Below are positions 27,618 to 54,589 of a stretch of 64,000 nt of DNA, one piece after another. The stretch lies in IMG/VR virus record IMGVR_UViG_2541047543_000003. One strand, given 5' to 3'. Under the pieces are notes generated by a model. The model did no database searches and was not told where the DNA came from. It worked only from the letters and a program-made list of their open reading frames with translations. Source of the stretch: a virus. Taxonomy: Duplodnaviria > Heunggongvirae > Uroviricota > Caudoviricetes. The position numbers and the translations under genes are program-made. Within the stretch, counting starts at the first letter, position 1. The number at the start of each line of letters is the position of its first letter.

Positions 27618-29237
27618 ATGTTCTTCTGGATAATAATAATGAACAGAGTTAACGCTTTACATGTGATAGTAGACGGAGTCTCAGCAAACTCCTGTGTTAT
27701 AGATGATATATATGCTGGAAATAACACTCCCATATCACCATTGGGAATATTTGATTTTCATACTCAAGAAATTGATGAGCTTGCCTTTCTAGACTATGAA
27801 ACTAAAATTTTTGAAAAAGAAGTTCATAGAATAAATGCAATCGACCTAGATTCTATTGAAACCTCATTTTTAGATTCTGTATATTACAAAACTGACATGG
27901 CGATCAGTGAAAAAAACATTCAGGCTGGCTACAAATCTGGATTCATTGATATTATAAAAGACACGATACATCTAGAATCTGATGGGTGGTATAACAAAGA
28001 TAATGAAAAAATTTGCGAGCCAAATGTAAGCATCCAAGAATTAAAGGAAATACTATCTTGGTCAATACAAATCCTGCCTCATTTGGAAACGGATAAAATA
28101 AGAGAAATGGACAATAATGGTGTTGTTACATTCGACGGAAAGCCAATTGCATTCAAAACTGATTCAAGCTGGACATTTGTCGAAAATGGGCGACAGTTAT
28201 CTGGTGATGCAATGAGAGTCTTACATCACTCAGATTGTTCATTCACATACTCTGAATCCAATGATAATTTGGATCTTTATCACGCTGTTACAATGAGTGA
28301 AGAAGATTATAAGAAAAACGGAACAAATTTCTATGGGTATGTGAGTAGAGGTAACTCAAAGCAGGGTGATGGATTGTATTTAACTGGAAGCCTAAACGAA
28401 GCCGTGCGTGTATATGGGAATCCAGAATCTTTTGAACGTAAAAGCCATGCATACGCAAACAAAGAAGAGCATTTAGTAAGACAAACTCAAAGAGGTGTTT
28501 TGCACAAGGTCTCTATTTCAAATGCAAATATATATGATGCCTCATTTGATAATAACTACCCTACTTTGCTAATGGATTCAAAACCGTCACCGATTTTACT
28601 TAGAACCATTGCAAACAAATACGATATCGAAGATAGGATCAAAGAAATTATTCTAGCTAAAACTAACTCAATGATCATTAATTCATCCAATCAATTTGAT
28701 GTTTATCTAGCCGTATCTGAATTTGCAAGTTCACTTGGTAGTTATTCTGGTAATCCCGAATCAAGAAATGTCATTAAACAGGTCTTTTCCGCGATGGGTT
28801 ATGATGGAATTAAGATAACCCCGCCGAATCAAAAGAAACTAAATACGATAAATGAGATAGCTACTGTATATAAAGATTATTGTAGTGGTAAGACAAATGA
28901 AATATTGTACGATGGGTTAAAGATTAAGCCTTTCGTTGCTAAACATATTGCAAGCTATTCAGTAAAAGTGAGGGACACACAAATACCAAAAATGGAAAAT
29001 TGCCATATTATAATGTTTTCTCCCGACAATTCGTTATGCAAAATAAAAGAAAGCATTACCCTGCCTAAGCACAAGAAATACATAAACGAAAGAGATGCGG
29101 GAACACAAGTAATTGATGATTTCTATGACTTAAAAAAAGGAAGCCTTGATAAACTGTCCTTTAAACAAATCAAGTCTATAACACATCAGCGCGACAACGG
29201 TGACTTCGATAAGCCAGGAATTGAATTAACAATGTAA
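27618..29237 (+). CDS. Hypothetical protein (539 aa)
   Basis: Long ORF (possible start at 27639) with a terminator downstream. Confidence 0.6.
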   Translation: MFFWIIIMNRVNALHVIVDGVSANSCVIDDIYAGNNTPISPLGIFDFHTQEIDELAFLDYETKIFEKEVHRINAIDLDSIETSFLDSVYYKTDMAISEKNIQAGYKSGFIDIIKDTIHLESDGWYNKDNEKICEPNVSIQELKEILSWSIQILPHLETDKIREMDNNGVVTFDGKPIAFKTDSSWTFVENGRQLSGDAMRVLHHSDCSFTYSESNDNLDLYHAVTMSEEDYKKNGTNFYGYVSRGNSKQGDGLYLTGSLNEAVRVYGNPESFERKSHAYANKEEHLVRQTQRGVLHKVSISNANIYDASFDNNYPTLLMDSKPSPILLRTIANKYDIEDRIKEIILAKTNSMIINSSNQFDVYLAVSEFASSLGSYSGNPESRNVIKQVFSAMGYDGIKITPPNQKKLNTINEIATVYKDYCSGKTNEILYDGLKIKPFVAKHIASYSVKVRDTQIPKMENCHIIMFSPDNSLCKIKESITLPKHKKYINERDAGTQVIDDFYDLKKGSLDKLSFKQIKSITHQRDNGDFDKPGIELTM

Positions 29238-29239
29238 TT

Positions 29240-29263
29240 AAAAGCCCTACAAGGGCTTTTTTA
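29240..29263 (+). terminator. Rho-independent terminator AAAAGCCCT-ACA-AGGGCTTTTTT
   Basis: 6-bp stem followed by T6. Confidence 0.8.
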
Positions 29264-29272
29264 AGGTGTAAA

Positions 29273-30529
29273 ATGATAACTATTAAGAAATACGGAAAAG
29301 CATTCACGAACAAAGATGTTGAAAGGCTAACAACACATTTCAATGCTCTATTTGAAAATAATATTGATATTGGGATTTCCTTCCATGAAAAAGACGACAA
29401 GCCATTTCATGCTATGACTCATATTTTCAATAATGATAATCGATTTAAGAGTGATTTTATAAATAGTGAATGTTCTAGCGAATCTATTATCGATGCAATT
29501 CAAAAATCGATTGAATCCCACTTGAAATATATATCTTGCAAGCATAGAGAACTCAAACCTCACATCACAAAAGAAGGTGTCCTCGTTACTAATGGTGTCA
29601 TGGAGTGCTCAGAATGTGGAATGCTTACTCTTCCTTCGGTAGAAGCTGCTGCTTCAGAAAGAAGAACAATACTTCTATCCGCATTTGGCAAAGCAAAGGA
29701 GAGATATTATACGACATTATTCAACTGGAGTGGTATTTCTATACAGGGCGGTGATAACGGTGTTGTTATTTCTGCTGCTAAAGGTAAATCCTATGCTACT
29801 TCATTTTTCGAAGCGTTCCCAACCATACACAATGTTAAAACATTCATTAGAGGTGAAGGAACTACATTGGTTAAAGCTGAACAAGATGCTTACGAAAAGT
29901 TAAACAAAAAATTGAATTGTAAAGAGCATGACTGGGTAAGAACTGATGGACGCGGTGAAAGAAAAGATGGATATGCAACTTGCACAAAGTGCGCCTTATC
30001 AGGTCATGCTCTGGAACCTACCACTGAATGCACTATATGTAAATCTCCTGCAAAATTAACGAATCTTGATCAGTTTTATTGCGATGCTCATTACAACAAG
30101 CTTTCGTTTGAGGAACTATATGAAAATGATGTTGCATTCAATAAAGAAAGGTATGAAGATCCAGAATCAATTATACCAATTGAAACAGAAGACGAACTTA
30201 AAGGTGAAAACTTCGAGAGCTATTTAAGCAATAAATTTTACGTGCTGCTCAGAGATCAGTCGTTAGAATCAGGAACCCCGCTTTCTAAAGAAGAATCATT
30301 TTATCTCACAAGAAAGTTTATACAAATCGTAAAAAAACACATATACGAAATAAAGGGTTATCAAAACTTCACAGAGATACCTGACATAGAAAGCAAAGAA
30401 TTCAAAAATAACATGGAATGCTTGGAGAAAAATATGGCGGAGTATTTGAATAAAAAATCAAAAAACGATGAATTGGCATTTGCATCATTGTTCCTTGGTT
30501 GGTTAAAATTTGCTGGAATCAAAAATTGA
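29273..30529 (+). CDS. Cysteine-rich hypothetical protein (418 aa), tandem paralog A
   Basis: Shares long collinear blocks with the next gene: C-x2-C pairs, SFFEAFP, FIRGEGxxxxxAEQ(D/N)A(Y/W)(E/D)K, ALEPTT(E/K)C and C(D)DH(Y/F)(N/Y). Confidence 0.65.
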   Translation: MITIKKYGKAFTNKDVERLTTHFNALFENNIDIGISFHEKDDKPFHAMTHIFNNDNRFKSDFINSECSSESIIDAIQKSIESHLKYISCKHRELKPHITKEGVLVTNGVMECSECGMLTLPSVEAAASERRTILLSAFGKAKERYYTTLFNWSGISIQGGDNGVVISAAKGKSYATSFFEAFPTIHNVKTFIRGEGTTLVKAEQDAYEKLNKKLNCKEHDWVRTDGRGERKDGYATCTKCALSGHALEPTTECTICKSPAKLTNLDQFYCDAHYNKLSFEELYENDVAFNKERYEDPESIIPIETEDELKGENFESYLSNKFYVLLRDQSLESGTPLSKEESFYLTRKFIQIVKKHIYEIKGYQNFTEIPDIESKEFKNNMECLEKNMAEYLNKKSKNDELAFASLFLGWLKFAGIKN

Positions 30530-31796
30530 GGAATGTAAAGTGATAACGATAGAAAACGGGCTGACATCAGACTACCCTATAACGAAACACGCCTTGTTAG
30601 TAATTCAGGAACAAATTAATAGGAACCATAAAACAACTGAAGAACTCAAGATTATCATTAATAATGATGACTTAAAGAATGTAACAGCAAGCATTCGATA
30701 CATCTCTGACAATGGAAATAAAATACCAGACTTTTGGGTGTCTAGTGAAATGCATTTAATCTTGAGTCAGGCTGTTGAAGAGGTTTTGTTAAAATACAAA
30801 GCATACAGAAATTGTAATCACGAACAGTTTATACCTGCGATTTCGCAGGAAGGGCGAATCTTTTCTGATGGTACTTGCTCATGCTCAAAATGTGGGATTG
30901 TGACCACATCGGGTTTTGGTGAGAGAATTGGTACTACAAATACATTTAAGGTTAACCTATCATCAAGAAAGTACGAAACCAGGTATGATTGGGGAAAAGT
31001 ACACCTTCAAGCTGGCGAAAGCGGTATTGTTATATCAAGAGGAAAAGGTTCTTATATGACATCGTTTTTTGAGGCATTTCCAAAGGTTAGTGGATTTGGA
31101 ACTTTTATTCGTGGAGAAGGTAAAGATATAGATGAAGCTGAGCAAAATGCATGGGATAAATTTCAGAAGCAACTAGCATGTGTGGAACATCAATGGACTA
31201 GAAAAGTGCATGGCAGAGTTAGATCAGACGGTTATGCTCAGTGTGAACTCTGTGGTTTACGAGCCACTGCTCTTGAACCTACAACCAAATGCAGTAAATG
31301 TGAAAAAAATACAGCTAGAGAGTTTAGCGATGGATTTTTATGTGATGATCACTTCTACGAATTAACTTTCCAAGATTTCTTAGACGAAGAAAATCGAATA
31401 ACCCTAGAATGGGATGACGATCTGGAGACTGAGAAGGAAATTCAGAACAAGAAGTTTGAAAATTTTGTTCGCGCTCATTTTATGGTATCGCTTAAGGATG
31501 CGTTTATTGATAACAATTACCGAGATGATAAGATAGATGATAAATTAATGAGGTTTTCGATACACTATTACAACCACTTTAAGAGACATGTGTTTGGAAC
31601 AAGACCATTTGAAAGCCTTAACACAGTACCAGCCACTGATAATCCAGATTTGATATTTAATTTGAAAATAATGAAAGACAATGTGAGTGATATTGTGAAA
31701 CAAATTATGGATAAAGAAGAAAAGATTAGCTTTAAGAGACTAATCAATGGTCTGATTCCTATGCCTGGGTATGTCAAGCCTAAAGATAACGCTTGA
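30510..31796 (+). CDS. Cysteine-rich hypothetical protein (428 aa), tandem paralog B
   Basis: 20-nt overlap with paralog A and the same motif order. At least eight conserved cysteines suggest Zn-binding modules. Confidence 0.65.
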   Translation: MLESKIEECKVITIENGLTSDYPITKHALLVIQEQINRNHKTTEELKIIINNDDLKNVTASIRYISDNGNKIPDFWVSSEMHLILSQAVEEVLLKYKAYRNCNHEQFIPAISQEGRIFSDGTCSCSKCGIVTTSGFGERIGTTNTFKVNLSSRKYETRYDWGKVHLQAGESGIVISRGKGSYMTSFFEAFPKVSGFGTFIRGEGKDIDEAEQNAWDKFQKQLACVEHQWTRKVHGRVRSDGYAQCELCGLRATALEPTTKCSKCEKNTAREFSDGFLCDDHFYELTFQDFLDEENRITLEWDDDLETEKEIQNKKFENFVRAHFMVSLKDAFIDNNYRDDKIDDKLMRFSIHYYNHFKRHVFGTRPFESLNTVPATDNPDLIFNLKIMKDNVSDIVKQIMDKEEKISFKRLINGLIPMPGYVKPKDNA

Positions 31797-31904: not shown

Positions 31905-32303
31905 ATGGCAAATCGTCAACACACTGAGTTTTTTTGCAACCGTCCAGAGGCAAGAAAGAAATCGTATTTTGTTTATGAAGAACGAGTTACTAGTTTTTAT
32001 GAATATGATGAAGATTTAGCTACTGGAGATATCGAAATTGACAAAGCTCTATTTCGAAATTACAGCTACACTAACCACTTGGGCTTTAATCGCTCATATG
32101 GAAGAAAGCGATCAGCCAAAGGCGTAATGCAAGACTTAAGAACCAGAATGGGTCATGCGTTAGATTACCCTGAGTACAACTTCAAGCGTAAGAGAGTTTG
32201 TAAGTCATACTGGGATATTGCCGATGGAGACAGCTATGCATACAAGCTCCAAAATAACTGGAAAGGAAACAGTAAAAGAAAACACCAGTGGATTGCGAAA
32301 TAA
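31905..32303 (+). CDS. Basic hypothetical protein (132 aa)
   Basis: SD GGAGAT upstream and a terminator immediately downstream. Confidence 0.55.
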   Translation: MANRQHTEFFCNRPEARKKSYFVYEERVTSFYEYDEDLATGDIEIDKALFRNYSYTNHLGFNRSYGRKRSAKGVMQDLRTRMGHALDYPEYNFKRKRVCKSYWDIADGDSYAYKLQNNWKGNSKRKHQWIAK

Positions 32304-32331
32304 AAAAACCGAGCTAAGGCTCGGTTTTTTA
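32302..32331. terminator. Bidirectional terminator AAAAAAACCGAGC-TAAG-GCTCGGTTTTTT
   Basis: 6-bp stem flanked by A7 and T6, between convergent genes. Confidence 0.85.
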
Positions 32332-32789: not shown

Positions 32790-33065
32790 TTAGCTAAGAA
32801 ATTTATCGACAACTTTTAGCAAAAAAGCAATCCAACCAAATCCTAAAATGGCTGAAATTAGCACATAAAATGCAAGTAATTTCCTTATATACAAAGTTTT
32901 GAAGTTCATTAGTATGTATGATGTAAGAATTGCATTCAAAATGATTGCTGAGAATGACACACCTATGGGTATGCTTTGAAGTAAAACTGTCACTTTAATA
33001 CCAATATCATTATTTAAACCAAGATTAACAAAATGAATGAGCCACATAAAGTAATTGCTAAACAA
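32790..33065 (-). CDS. Small membrane protein (91 aa)
   Basis: Hydrophobic ORF. It overlaps the plus ORF 33033..33305 by 33 nt, so one of the two may be spurious. Confidence 0.35.
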   Translation of the reverse strand: MFSNYFMWLIHFVNLGLNNDIGIKVTVLLQSIPIGVSFSAIILNAILTSYILMNFKTLYIRKLLAFYVLISAILGFGWIAFLLKVVDKFLS

Positions 33066-33305
33066 TACTTACAGAAAATTAAAGCATTCAAAACCTACGA
33101 GTGCAATCCAGAAGACCCTATGAGTAATAGTCACCTGTCATGGATGCTTCATGTAATTAGTTGTGAAATTTATGACCCTGCACAAGAATCAGAAACCAAA
33201 ATGAATCGTTGGCTTGGGTATGTACAAGGGGTAATGGTTGCGAAAGGGATGATCCAAGTCAATGAAGAAAGAGACAGAACTAGAGCTATTTTCAACGGCA
33301 AATAA
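33033..33305 (+). CDS. Hypothetical protein (90 aa)
   Basis: Lone plus-strand ORF between minus-strand genes. Confidence 0.4.
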   Translation: MNEPHKVIAKQYLQKIKAFKTYECNPEDPMSNSHLSWMLHVISCEIYDPAQESETKMNRWLGYVQGVMVAKGMIQVNEERDRTRAIFNGK

Positions 33306-33978: not shown

Positions 33979-34464
33979 ATGGAAAGTCTAGTAGATAACT
34001 CTAAAAAGAAAGTTCCATGCTTCATAGATGAATTTAGCTGTTCTAAATCAGAGCAATCTGCTTACTATAGAATGCGAATGCTGCTAACACTTACTAGCAA
34101 CGGCTGGAATGTTGGAGAGGCATTCAATGACCGATATATGACTATCGTTGGGGGAAATTGCACTTATTTAACGATGGGAAATGACGGACAAACTCACACT
34201 AGTTATTCTGAGAGAGAGTCATCTATCTTTGATTCCGTTGAAAATACCTCATATTCAGCAAAAGAAGCTGAAACTATTCCTGCTCTTCATAGTTGCTTAG
34301 CAAGATTAAGAGAAAGAGAATCAGAATACGCGAGACATAAAAAAAGCACATTGATATTGGAGAAACTATGTTTCTCCTTTTATCTGTCAAGACTACGTTC
34401 ATTTGACAGTGTCATGCCAAACTCTGAGGTAATGATGATTTGGTCTTCGCTAAATACTATGTAG
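33979..34464 (+). CDS. Hypothetical protein (161 aa)
   Basis: ORF. Its 3' end overlaps the convergent gene 34380..35372 by about 85 nt. Confidence 0.4.
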   Translation: MESLVDNSKKKVPCFIDEFSCSKSEQSAYYRMRMLLTLTSNGWNVGEAFNDRYMTIVGGNCTYLTMGNDGQTHTSYSERESSIFDSVENTSYSAKEAETIPALHSCLARLRERESEYARHKKSTLILEKLCFSFYLSRLRSFDSVMPNSEVMMIWSSLNTM

Positions 34465-35372
34465 CTATCTATACCTGTATCCTCTATTTCGTTTCTATAT
34501 ATGATGCCATCTATGCCCATATCGAGGAATATTCTCTTTAGCTGAGAGTACTTTTCCTCTAGATTCGACTGTGACATGATTTTATCAACCTGAAATGAAT
34601 CTAATTTTGCCTCTCTAGCAATATCTAAAGGAGACCAAACACCAAGATCGCTCATCCTTATAGGGTTCCGTAAAATCAAGTTTGCACGTTTAATAACGGA
34701 TTCTTTCACAAGCTTGGCAGCACAAGATGCAACATTGCGATCTTCTGTGGAAAGTATTGTTGTTCCATTAGCTAACACGTTGAATTGAGGCTTTTTACCA
34801 ATATTTACAAGCATGTCATTATACTTGTCAGTTATTGGAAGATTTGTATAGCTATCAATCTCATGCTTAAGCTCTTCATCTGACAATGAATTAATAATGT
34901 CTACTATGCCAGGCTTTGGGTGCTGTAGTCTTGGTATGATTATAGCTTTAGCTTTTACCCTTAGATCTGTAGAATTTTCGTCGCCTACTCTTATCCCAAA
35001 TGGACTTTCAGAAGAAAACTCTTCTCTTTCAATTGATACATCCATTCTTGGAATGCTTTTTAGTCGCTTCAATGCGGCTGACTTTGTTCCAAAATGAAAA
35101 CCAATATCAGATGAATGCTCAAATCTAGAGAAGAATTCATTAGTTCCGTGGTACACATTTCTAATGTTCGCTAACTTACAATTTTCCTTCCATTTTTCAA
35201 TATAGTCATTGGCTATATTAGATAGGTTACAATATATTACAGGGTTATCAGCATTTCCACCTGCTATAAGATCATATCCGATGTCTTTAGCAAGCTCCTT
35301 TATTTCCTCTGATACCACATTTTTTATGAATAAAACTTTTGGCGCTGTCACTTTAAATCTCCAGTTTTGCAT
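34380..35372 (-). CDS. Hypothetical protein (about 330 aa); segment VYHGTNEFFSRFEHSSDIGFHFGTKSAA resembles the Tpt1/KptA-type HGT...HhS core
   Basis: The ORF is solid, with ATG at 35372 or GTG at 35390. The motif resemblance to the RNA 2'-phosphotransferase / ADP-ribosyltransferase fold is tentative. Confidence 0.55.
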   Translation of the reverse strand: MQNWRFKVTAPKVLFIKNVVSEEIKELAKDIGYDLIAGGNADNPVIYCNLSNIANDYIEKWKENCKLANIRNVYHGTNEFFSRFEHSSDIGFHFGTKSAALKRLKSIPRMDVSIEREEFSSESPFGIRVGDENSTDLRVKAKAIIIPRLQHPKPGIVDIINSLSDEELKHEIDSYTNLPITDKYNDMLVNIGKKPQFNVLANGTTILSTEDRNVASCAAKLVKESVIKRANLILRNPIRMSDLGVWSPLDIAREAKLDSFQVDKIMSQSNLEEKYSQLKRIFLDMGIDGIIYRNEIEDTGIDSYIVFSEDQIIITSEFGMTLSNERSLDR

Positions 35373-35472
35373 GTGTACATTATACCACACCTGATTAATT
35401 CTCGGTAAAGCATTTACCTTAATTCTTAATAGTGTATTATGTGATAAATAAAATCATCAAAAGGAAATTAAA

Positions 35473-51289: not shown

Positions 51290-52252
51290 TTATTTATCAG
51301 CAGATTCAGGCACTTCTTCAACTTCACCTTCTGATTTAGAAGATTGTTGTGCTTTCTTAAGTTGCGATGCTACTTTAGCTTGCAATCCCATTTCGTTTGA
51401 AGCTTGGTTTGTACCCAATAGAACTAGGTTGCCATAACGAGCTGCTGTTGTAACAGAGTCGCGAGCATCCATCGCTTCCATTGATGCCATCAGCATATTA
51501 ATCTCTGATGCGTCAGTTGTTGACTGTTTGAATTTATTCAAGTTTTCAACACATACTTGAGCGTAAGATTCTCTAGATTTAACAGCAGCCTTGGTACGCT
51601 CTTCAAGCGCTCCAGCATCTGCACGAGCATCTGCCATCTTAAGTTCGAATTTAGCCTCTTTTTCAATTTTTGCCGCTTCTAGTGTGCGCTTAGCAGCTAC
51701 GACACGGTTTGAAGCATCACGCACTTCAGGAGGTAGTTTAGGGTCATCAATTTTAACATCTGTAATCTCATATCCGTACTGATTGTAGTTTGCGTTCAGT
51801 TTGTCGATTAGATTCTTGGTCATTGCACCTTTACTGCTGTAAATTTCTTTTGTTTCCAAGGAATCACATTCGGAACAAGTCATTTGACGCAAATCAGACT
51901 TGATCAAGGATTCAGGATCGTCAAGGTCATAGCAAGCCTCTTGCATTTTATTCTTCATCACGCGAACTGAAGCGTTAACCGTCATCCCAAGGACAACTTC
52001 ATCTGCTGTTTTGACAGAACAATCTTCTTTGATTTGGAAAATGTCAAAAGACACATTGTCAGCAACACCATGAATTGGAGCTGGAAGTTTAAAATAAATG
52101 CCTGGCTCAGAGATTTCACGGACAATTCGACCACCAAAGAAGTTGATTAACACACCTTGCTTTGGTTTTACAATCACGATCATTGTGGATAGAAGTGCTA
52201 AGACAGCAACACCAATTGCGCCAAACATCAAAATATTAGATAGTGTACCCAT
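51290..52252 (-). CDS. SPFH/band-7 (stomatin/prohibitin/HflK-like) domain membrane protein
   Basis: N-terminal TM helix, an SPFH-like core (VKPKQGVLINFFGGRIV...), then an Ala/Lys/Glu-rich coiled-coil tail. Confidence 0.7.
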   Translation of the reverse strand: MGTLSNILMFGAIGVAVLALLSTMIVIVKPKQGVLINFFGGRIVREISEPGIYFKLPAPIHGVADNVSFDIFQIKEDCSVKTADEVVLGMTVNASVRVMKNKMQEACYDLDDPESLIKSDLRQMTCSECDSLETKEIYSSKGAMTKNLIDKLNANYNQYGYEITDVKIDDPKLPPEVRDASNRVVAAKRTLEAAKIEKEAKFELKMADARADAGALEERTKAAVKSRESYAQVCVENLNKFKQSTTDASEINMLMASMEAMDARDSVTTAARYGNLVLLGTNQASNEMGLQAKVASQLKKAQQSSKSEGEVEEVPESADK

Positions 52253-52951: not shown

Positions 52952-54589
52952 TCAAAGCGAATTTTGTACTTCTTGGTCTAAAATTTTACTTTGAATTTCA
53001 CCACCATCACCAAATAGAAGATCATGTTGTTTATTCAATACACTTACGAAATCAAAGTTGCTTCCTTGTTCATAACCACAGATCTTTAATCCATTTTCCT
53101 TAAGAACTCCAACAAGAGTTGGTGATACATTCTTTGGAACAATCGCAACAGAGAAATCGTGTAAGCGAATAGGATTACTCATTTTTAACTCGAAGTATGT
53201 ATACGGAGCAACAATTAGACTCTTTTTTAAGTCATCGATTCTAGTTATAAGTTCATCTGGTAGCTGATCAACAAAAAAGCTTTCACACAGCGCTTCGTTA
53301 ACTTCACAACGTGATTGAACGAGTGCTTCCGTAGCAACATTACTGTAGATTGATGACACATTTCCATTTGGATCTTTGAATTTGTAGTAATCAGATAATT
53401 CTTCAATTATTGCACTCAATTCACCATTAAGGTTCGTGAAATACGCAGTGACTTCGTCTTCAGATTTTAACTGATCTATGTGATTCTCAATTTCTTCTAA
53501 AGAGTTAAATCTCTCTTTTACCGATGCTGCAATCTTAACTATCGAAGTAGAAAATAAACTATCACATGTAATCAATTTTCTGTTCATTTCTTTTGATAGA
53601 TTCTCTAGAGTCGCCGTTTCTTTTTCAACGCCGTAGATCTCATCGGGCGAAATATCTTCTTTGTCATAATCAACATCATGCTCAGAAGCTTTAAGGAAAA
53701 AGGCTTTTCCAAAGCCAGGTTCAATTGTCTTTGATATCCAACCTTCAAAATCTGCGCGTGGGACATTATTTTTGAAGTACTCCTCAAGATCACTTACGTA
53801 TTTGGACTCGTCAATTGAAGGTGTTTTTACAAGATATTCATTTATATCCTTTTTCGCATTATCAAAATAGCTTACATACATTTTTGGATTTCCATCCTCA
53901 AAGTACATACTATTTTCAATGTACGCATTTAATTTCTTGAGTTCGATCCTGATTTTTCTTGAGTTTTGAATATCAGTGTCTTTACTACTTAAAATTTTCA
54001 TTCTTAACTGGATGTCAGCAAGCAGAAATTTTGATATTGCTTTGTTGGCATCATCCTCTGGAAGTTCTAAAGCATTATTACGCATAATCGCATCAATGGA
54101 CTCATCAGATAAAAACGGGACTCTTTTTTCCTTGGGGATCTCATTAGATTTGCAAAGATTAGGTATGTTTTTGTCTTGCAGATAGAGTAATTTGACAGCA
54201 GGGTTATTCATCAACAAGTTTCTTGCAGAAATCGCACCTTTGAGTATCTCTGGATGTATAGCCGACTGGGTTTGATATCTCACACCAACATTAACGTGAT
54301 TAGCTTTTAGGGCTGATTCTAGGCGCTCATTGAATTGATCCCAGAATGAGTGATTTAATTCAAAAGAAACATCTGGAAATACTGAACTGTACACATCAAT
54401 AGATGAAGCGTAATTACTGTTGAAATCAATTTTTTTAGGGTCAAGAAGTAGTACGCAAGAGCCATACATAAAGAACTCTTGGTCTGAAGGGATGAAGCCA
54501 AGTGAAGGATTTGGAAGCCCTCCGATTAGGTTTGCGAACTCTAAATCACTTTCTGTCAAAGCGTGTGCTAATGCTATTCTTTTTTTCAT
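52952..54589 (-). CDS. Hypothetical protein (545 aa)
   Basis: Long ORF. Confidence 0.6.
   Translation of the reverse strand: MKKRIALAHALTESDLEFANLIGGLPNPSLGFIPSDQEFFMYGSCVLLLDPKKIDFNSNYASSIDVYSSVFPDVSFELNHSFWDQFNERLESALKANHVNVGVRYQTQSAIHPEILKGAISARNLLMNNPAVKLLYLQDKNIPNLCKSNEIPKEKRVPFLSDESIDAIMRNNALELPEDDANKAISKFLLADIQLRMKILSSKDTDIQNSRKIRIELKKLNAYIENSMYFEDGNPKMYVSYFDNAKKDINEYLVKTPSIDESKYVSDLEEYFKNNVPRADFEGWISKTIEPGFGKAFFLKASEHDVDYDKEDISPDEIYGVEKETATLENLSKEMNRKLITCDSLFSTSIVKIAASVKERFNSLEEIENHIDQLKSEDEVTAYFTNLNGELSAIIEELSDYYKFKDPNGNVSSIYSNVATEALVQSRCEVNEALCESFFVDQLPDELITRIDDLKKSLIVAPYTYFELKMSNPIRLHDFSVAIVPKNVSPTLVGVLKENGLKICGYEQGSNFDFVSVLNKQHDLLFGDGGEIQSKILDQEVQNSL

Follow-up and report, generated by a model that had tools for sequence, protein, structure and literature searches.

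A widespread zinc-ribbon protein family of mobile elements, present as tandem paralogs in a Vibrio megaplasmid lineage

HPF binds the 30S decoding region via conserved basic residues. Together with the dsRBD and with zinc ribbons of the DZR type, HPF is the described module closest to the products of two adjacent genes, called A and B here, that lie in a stretch of 64,000 nucleotides deposited in IMG/VR as record IMGVR_UViG_2541047543_000003. We refer to this entire stretch as the window. Genes A and B belong to a large, widespread, and undescribed family of mobile-element proteins that possesses a defined zinc-ribbon architecture.

Both open reading frames (ORFs) reported in the initial annotation of the window (29273-30529 and 30510-31796) are present, and the products are collinear paralogs as proposed there. 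Specifically, BLASTP aligns A with B over 372 collinear amino acids with 29% identity, 53% positives, and E=8e-61, which places their paralogy far beyond chance. The motifs originally listed likewise occur in both proteins: CSECG/CSKCG, SFFEAFP, FIRGEG...AEQ(D/N)A(Y/W)(E/D)K, ALEPTT(E/K)C, and CDAHY/CDDHF. At least eight conserved cysteines in two zinc modules had been proposed. The cysteine-rich character and the predicted zinc binding hold; the number of modules does not. Nine cysteines and three histidines are conserved between A and B, and they form three four-ligand sets. The predicted ligands are C89/H91/C112/C115, C216/H219/C237/C240, and C253/C256/C270/H273 in A, and C92/H94/C115/C118, C214/H217/C235/C238, and C251/C254/C268/H271 in B. 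Across the family, conservation in the columns of the two C-terminal sets is 82-100%, the first CHCC set is present as a motif in 49 of 50 long members of the family, and short strands flank the cysteine knuckles in the model of B.

The reported 20-nt overlap between the genes, and a B protein of 428 amino acids, are consequences of choosing the longest ORF, which begins at TTG 30510. GTG 30540 is the most likely start of gene B. A GAGGAA Shine-Dalgarno sequence at 30528-30533 overlaps the TGA stop codon of A and lies 6 nt before this GTG, PGAP chose the same start in three related plasmids, NZ_CP062152 and NZ_CP015514 among them, and the B-orthologous clusters P0001 and P0002 are 418 amino acids long with the N-terminus MITIENG, paralleling MITIKK of A. 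With this start, A and B are of equal length and are separated by a 10-nt spacer, a typical arrangement for co-transcribed, and possibly translationally coupled, genes. Gene A is preceded by an AAGGTG ribosome-binding site at 29263-29268, its coding sequence is annotated identically in NZ_CP062152 and NZ_CP015514, and its product matches the family profile with E~1e-62.

The family profile, built from 18 homologs, was searched against 1.84 billion representative proteins (50% identity clusters). The family comprises 847 representatives at a cutoff of E<=1e-3, of which 441 pass E<=1e-30. Two forms exist. The long form, to which A and B belong, spans ~400-450 amino acids and accounts for approximately one third of the top hits. 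The short form, which is commoner, spans 160-300 amino acids and corresponds to residues ~130-275 of B, that is, the core plus the double zinc ribbon; it is the minimal, ancestral member of the family. Conservation was assessed in 149 aligned sequences (residue numbers are those of B). Three positions, E178, R191, and A200, never vary, and over 20 others reach at least 90% conservation, among them W151, Q157, the block Y172-x-T-A-F-F-E-A-F-P181, F189-x-R-G-E-G194, E201, and the ligands C214, H217, C235, C238, C251, C254, and C268. The core motifs hardly vary between bacterial phyla, at an overall identity of ~25-30%.

That the proteins belong to no recognized family, as initially stated, is borne out by every collection searched. 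A, B, and up to 149 relatives gave no family match above threshold in Pfam, NCBIfam, PHROGs, or PADLOC, and profiles of the whole family and of the core retrieved nothing meaningful from PDB sequences. The sub-threshold Pfam matches are exclusively to zinc-binding families, namely C1_1 (in 23 of 149 members), DZR, and Zn_Ribbon families. A methyltransferase match (E=0.028) was judged to be due to chance, its domain E-value being 1.6. Two motif-based readings were dropped for misfits of spacing, order, and conservation: one took the C..H(E)...CxxC pattern to be a deaminase-like HxE/PCxxC motif, and the other was an ADP-ribosyltransferase R-S-E reading. No fusions to known domains were found in longer members or long ORFs, and searches of the literature by accession numbers and plasmid names found no functional information on the A and B genes.

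Structure prediction, suggested at the outset as a route to the family, yielded a confident model of B from which an architecture could be assigned; no characterized family was matched. The AlphaFold2 model, made from the 149-sequence alignment, is compact, with a predicted local distance difference test score (pLDDT) of 91.7 and a predicted template modeling score of 0.85. An earlier model from 18 sequences was poor (pLDDT 68.8). Foldseek results are consistent with the assigned architecture (Table 1), and no whole-protein match was obtained against PDB or BFVD. The beta-beta-beta-alpha core consists of beta-strands followed by one long helix and is predicted with pLDDT 94-98. The C-terminal helical domain is specific to the long form, is variable, and has no conserved columns in the alignments. 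The N-terminal domain is likewise restricted to long forms; it is poorly conserved in sequence, has no invariant column, and has an isoelectric point (pI) of 5.85. As modeled, this domain appears HPF-like in fold and is possibly a remote homolog of HPF. A search of its profile against 177,635 PDB sequences ranked Bacillus subtilis HPF first in a collinear alignment (E=0.039), which is suggestive only, and the BFVD matches include HPF homologs from the jumbo phages PBECO4 and GAP32.

Comparison of B with itself points to the origin of the long form. In hhalign, residues 1-126 match residues 127-250 with 97.3% probability (E=7.7e-11) over 111 collinear columns, which shows that an internal duplication of a unit composed of an alpha/beta domain, a helix, and a CxH..DG..CxxC ribbon gave rise to the long form. 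When the zinc ribbons are removed, the N-terminal domain and the core give no signal (E=0.5). The evidence for duplication therefore comes from the helix and the CHCC ribbon, with collinear extension.

The initial annotation took the pair to be phage genes. The 12 kb around the pair are 97.7% identical to two 0.88 Mb plasmids of Vibrio parahaemolyticus, and share 92% identity with each of two others, a V. parahaemolyticus plasmid of 0.94 Mb and the 0.93 Mb plasmid of V. vulnificus FORC_036. With its guanine-plus-cytosine (GC) content of ~35%, the window is, judged by this identity, part of a ~0.9 Mb, 35% GC Vibrio megaplasmid or "chromid" lineage and not of a phage. Published work describes such elements as low-GC chromids of ~900 kb that several Vibrio species have in common (PMC6381281). 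Among 50,697 phage records, megablast of the region returned no match, and tblastn with A, the B core, and the short form P0013 returned a single one, to the 462 kb uncultured phage LR756500; an origin from a cultured phage was rejected. The family itself is nonetheless common in viral contigs. Fragments of the lineage surface under other labels. A 71 kb piece (L048) is listed by IMG/VR as viral, and a 14.6 kb contig (L011, JBLWTJ010000007.1, "MAG: Bacteriovoracaceae bacterium") carries an A-B pair 86% identical to that of the window; this contig is probably a piece of such a Vibrio-type megaplasmid that was assigned to the wrong metagenome-assembled genome (MAG).

Family members occur on giant plasmids, in prophage-like regions of many phyla, and on viral contigs and jumbo phages. 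Plasmid matches in tblastn were to very large replicons only, down to 154 kb among those listed. The carriers are four Vibrio megaplasmids, Clostridium perfringens pJFP838A (404 kb), and plasmids of Acetobacter (471 and 526 kb), Variovorax (~800 kb), Bosea (~700 kb), Arthrobacter/Pseudarthrobacter (375-427 kb), and Streptomyces (154 kb). In GTDB, members are found in Bacteroidota, Alpha- and Gammaproteobacteria, Actinomycetota, Chloroflexota, Acidobacteriota, Armatimonadota, and one archaeal MAG. IMG/VR holds 72 loci; the contig reaches 100 kb or more in 29 of them and 200 kb or more in 10, the longest being 675 kb.

The neighbors of family genes are mostly unannotated. Those with annotations include DNA methylases, integrases, DnaE, GyrA, SSB, RecA, LigA, DnaQ-like exonucleases, ThyA, DHFR, NUDIX proteins, NT5C, and dCMP deaminase, as well as a Tad2-like gene in one locus, and are typical of the DNA-metabolism or "early" regions of mobile elements. 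The Vibrio lineage has polA 1.7 kb upstream of the pair; in four or five actinobacterial elements of ~155 kb, the family gene directly follows dnaE; and in Acetobacter, it lies near gyrA. The Streptomyces-type ~155 kb elements with dnaE (Pol III alpha) upstream are loci L005/L083, L036, L044/L112, L084, and L108, and in pRLB1-9.1 the gap between dnaE and the family gene is 8 nt. The 154,158 bp Streptomyces "plasmid" is also an IMG/VR viral genome, and thus may be a phage-plasmid. A further set of loci (L006-L009, metagenomic contigs of at most 75 kb encoding the short form P0013) has a phage-like context that includes a protein with major-vault-protein shoulder and Vault_3 domains, an ankyrin-repeat protein, T4 gp30.3-like genes, NT5C, and NUDIX, a gene set that is unusual for a bacterial virus.

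How the pair evolves was assessed from the ratio of nonsynonymous to synonymous substitution rates (dN/dS) between the window and the 98% and 92% identical plasmid variants, with nine neighboring genes as reference. Values of 0.12-0.15 for A and 0.21-0.25 for B fall within the range of the neighbors (0.04-0.44), so the pair is under purifying selection and is not hypervariable. None of the four complete megaplasmids lacks either gene. By bit score, A resembles the single-copy metagenomic homolog P0035 (255 bits) more than it does B (191 bits), so the split between A and B is old; a neighbor-joining tree groups A with P0035 and B with P0033. The two genes are thus tandem paralogs, as first described, but old ones. 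The variation across related genomes for which a check had been proposed did not appear, nor does the pair look like diversified paralogs that mark host interaction or anti-defense, given the fixation, the dN/dS values, a nearly invariant core, and the absence of a PADLOC match. We infer that A and B are not a rapidly diversifying host-interaction pair.

Tandem copies occur only in the Vibrio megaplasmid lineage and in pJFP838A, so that both known pairs sit on megaplasmids. The C. perfringens plasmid encodes two adjacent short-form paralogs of 286 and 295 amino acids (locus L002, 8010-9820). Each is the other's best match, which indicates a duplication independent of that in Vibrio. Approximately 63 of 65 locus groups have a single copy, and the sequences do not support tandem duplication as a property of the family as a whole. 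The initial annotation had set its reading against that of a known, conserved single-copy family: the copy number does come close to such a distribution, and no characterized family was matched.

What do A and B do? Our favored explanation, to which we assign a probability of about 0.35, is that they are anciently diverged paralogs that work together as a zinc-stabilized nucleic-acid-binding accessory factor. Such a factor would serve the DNA or RNA transactions of the element itself and would act within the replication and nucleotide-metabolism ("early") gene neighborhood. The dsRBD/HPF-type modules and the zinc ribbons would provide the contact surfaces, and the co-transcribed A and B would cooperate, probably as a hetero-oligomer or as subfunctionalized copies. 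The nucleic-acid role is suggested by the fold class, HPF/dsRBD-like domains joined to zinc ribbons, together with the replication-type neighborhood.

Several observations weigh against this explanation. Both proteins are mildly acidic (pI 6.0). Only three basic positions, R191, K210, and R221, are conserved family-wide, and among the conserved polar positions acidic residues predominate (E178, E193, E199, and E201), joined by Q157 and T174, a pattern equally or better suited to an enzyme active site or a protein-protein interface. The core aligns in register with beta2-beta3-alpha2 of dsRBD sequences, but the signal is weak (P~1e-3, probability 14-25%) and no more than a lead; of the dsRBD pattern GxG...KKxAK...AA, the core conserves GEG and AE, whereas the RNA-contacting lysines are not kept. 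All-against-all clustering of the genes in the 65 locus groups revealed no conserved neighbor, the best being a DUF4326-like protein present in six groups, and adjacency to a polymerase gene, the most specific adjacency found, is confined to particular lineages. The acidic pI, the dearth of conserved basic residues, and the lack of a conserved partner leave some probability for an enzyme, a protein-protein adaptor, or an anti-defense function.

The alternative that survives best, although we regard it as unlikely, is a factor targeting the ribosome or structured RNA, in which the HPF-like N-terminal domain and the dsRBD-like core dock on rRNA or double-stranded RNA and allow giant plasmids and jumbo phages to modulate translation or RNA processing. 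The first-ranked PDB sequence and the jumbo-phage HPF matches described above argue for this idea, as do RNA-related neighbors in some loci (an NYN RNase, an RNA ligase, and a cold-shock domain) and a peptidyl-tRNA hydrolase gene ~15 kb away on the same plasmid. However, the HPF-like domain is confined to the long-form third of the top hits, and neither its acidity nor its want of invariant columns is expected of a protein that binds a universally conserved rRNA site. The Pfam models S30AE and dsrm are silent even at E<=1.

An enzyme is improbable. An active site for a nucleotide or nucleic-acid substrate could lie on the exposed side of the core sheet (T174, E178, R191, and E193, with Q157 and E201), leaving the zinc ribbons a structural role. 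Near invariance of the eight-residue T-A-F-F-E-A-F-P and of RGEG across such divergent proteins suits an active site, as do conserved polar residues that are acidic plus one arginine, and nucleotide- or DNA-modifying genes (ThyA, DHFR, NUDIX, NT5C, dCMP deaminase, and methylases) are frequent neighbors. But the proteins match no enzyme fold in structure or sequence, no cofactor-binding motif was recognized in them, and the G-x-G and A-E pattern can be explained by structural features of the dsRBD kind.

A bolder proposal, and a long shot, is that giant plasmids and jumbo or mega-phages encode, in this family, an unrecognized class of ribosome- or structured-RNA-binding factors. Zinc ribbons would clamp their duplicated HPF/dsRBD-like modules, and A and B would form a heterodimeric version. 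If so, very large mobile elements would tune the translation or RNA metabolism of their hosts.

Finally, an anti-defense or host-takeover pair diversified against host systems would accord with confinement to mobile elements without an obligate partner, with accessory or early-type regions beside orphan DNA methylases and, once, a Tad2-like gene, and with two independent duplications, but is made quite improbable by purifying selection equal to that on neighboring genes, fixation in four of four complete megaplasmids, extreme conservation of the core across phyla, the predominance of single copies, the lack of PADLOC similarity, and the proximity of A to P0035, which speaks of an old split and no recent arms-race diversification.

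The coordinates of the pair, of the predicted domains of B, and of the flanking features are collected in Table 1.

Table 1. Genes A and B, domains of B as assigned from its predicted structure, and flanking features (window coordinates)
Feature	Coordinates	Strand	Remarks
539-aa ORF upstream of A	27618..29237	+	532 aa from PGAP start 27639; lineage-restricted ORFan
Terminator-like hairpin (tentative)	29240..29262	+	AAAAGCCC-TACAA-GGGCTTTT+TT; between the 539-aa gene and A; read by eye
Gene A	29273..30529	+	418 aa; long-form family member; ORF
Gene B	30540..31796	+	418 aa from GTG 30540 (most likely start)
B N-terminal domain, residues 1-91	30540..30812	+	beta-alpha-beta-beta-beta-alpha, HPF/YfiA-like fold in the model
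B first CHCC zinc ribbon, residues 92-126 (predicted)	30813..30917	+	CxH-x(n)-DG-x3-CxxC
B family core, residues 127-213	30918..31178	+	W..Q.G.SG.V...Y.T(A/S)FFEAFP...F.RGEG...AE
B double zinc ribbon, residues 214-275 (predicted)	31179..31364	+	CHCC C214/H217/C235/C238 and CCCH C251/C254/C268/H271
B C-terminal helical domain, residues 276-418	31365..31793	+	four long helices (276-390); DSSP of the model
132-aa basic protein gene, 3' of B	31905..32303	+	ORF; followed by terminator 32303-32330

The 539-aa gene upstream of A, which had been thought possibly to belong to the same unit, is not part of it. The protein has no Pfam or PHROG match, and only three homologous clusters exist among 5.8 billion proteins, so the gene cannot be widespread. 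No homolog was found near family members in 10 loci searched, except for the two Vibrio copies. At the locus of the distant homolog P0162, where the family profile was not run, the surrounding called genes all lie on the opposite strand. The hairpin between the 539-aa gene and A also separates them, tentatively, as a rule-based terminator scan did not pick it up. Downstream of the pair, the first strong terminator found by that scan follows the gene for the 132-aa basic protein, and this gene is possibly co-transcribed with A and B. The 132-aa protein is unannotated and under very strong purifying selection (dN/dS 0.04-0.06). Likewise unannotated is a 90-aa protein (33033-33305, plus strand) with 100% amino acid identity across plasmids that differ by ~8% in DNA.

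Elsewhere, the window encodes, along with polA, an ERCC4 nuclease, TraF, a PBECR5-domain protein, an SPFH protein, and a trypsin-like protease. A 336-aa protein (34380-35390, minus strand) has a sub-threshold match to ART-PolyVal (E=6.9e-4, 20.8 bits versus a cutoff of 31.2), the ADP-ribosyltransferase of polyvalent proteins, and also matches PHROG 21376, a polyvalent-protein family of 1664 positions. A 545-aa protein (52952-54589, minus strand) carries an N-terminal PBECR5 domain (phage-Barnase-EndoU-ColicinE5/D-RelE-like nuclease; E=5e-11); near its gene are those for the SPFH/Band 7 protein (51290-52252), the trypsin-like protease (43413-44537), and a metallophosphoesterase (57913-58752). 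PLSDB classifies this type of megaplasmid as non-mobilizable, yet a TraF_2 protein (56542-57726) is among the products of the window, and published work describes the plasmids as conjugative.

Working out the role of the family would annotate ~850 protein clusters that are now "hypothetical," from giant plasmids of Vibrio, Clostridium, Acetobacter, Variovorax, Bosea, and Arthrobacter, from prophage-like regions, and from viral contigs of up to 675 kb. The family could, moreover, serve as a marker gene that ties megaplasmids to jumbo phages. Its TAFFEAFP/RGEG surface hardly varies, which suggests that whatever it targets is universal, be it nucleic acid or a strongly conserved machine of the host, and makes the family tractable for biochemistry. 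At present, it is a well-defined domain of unknown function assembled from known fold types, with no new mechanism attached.

Comparison with the described modules shows where the family departs from each. With HPF/YfiA (RaiA)/pY (S30AE, PF02482), the N-terminal domain shares, in the model, the ~95-residue beta-alpha-beta-beta-beta-alpha fold. In contrast to HPF, this domain is acidic, lacks conserved residues, and has zinc ribbons and another 320 residues fused to it; A, B, and 149 relatives give no match to the Pfam family at E<=1, and the domain is absent from the short-form majority. Compared with the dsRBD (PF00035, for example, the C-terminal domain of RNase III), whose alpha-beta-beta-beta-alpha fold spans 65-70 residues, the core model has beta-hairpins in place of helix alpha1. 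The double zinc ribbon, like DZR (PF12773), C1_1 (PF00130), and Zn_Ribbon, displays CxxC and CxH knuckles on beta-hairpins, with eight ligands in ~58 residues. It differs from them in its family-specific C-H-C-C / C-C-C-H ligand order and its conserved R..DG spacer, and all matches to these families fall below gathering thresholds.

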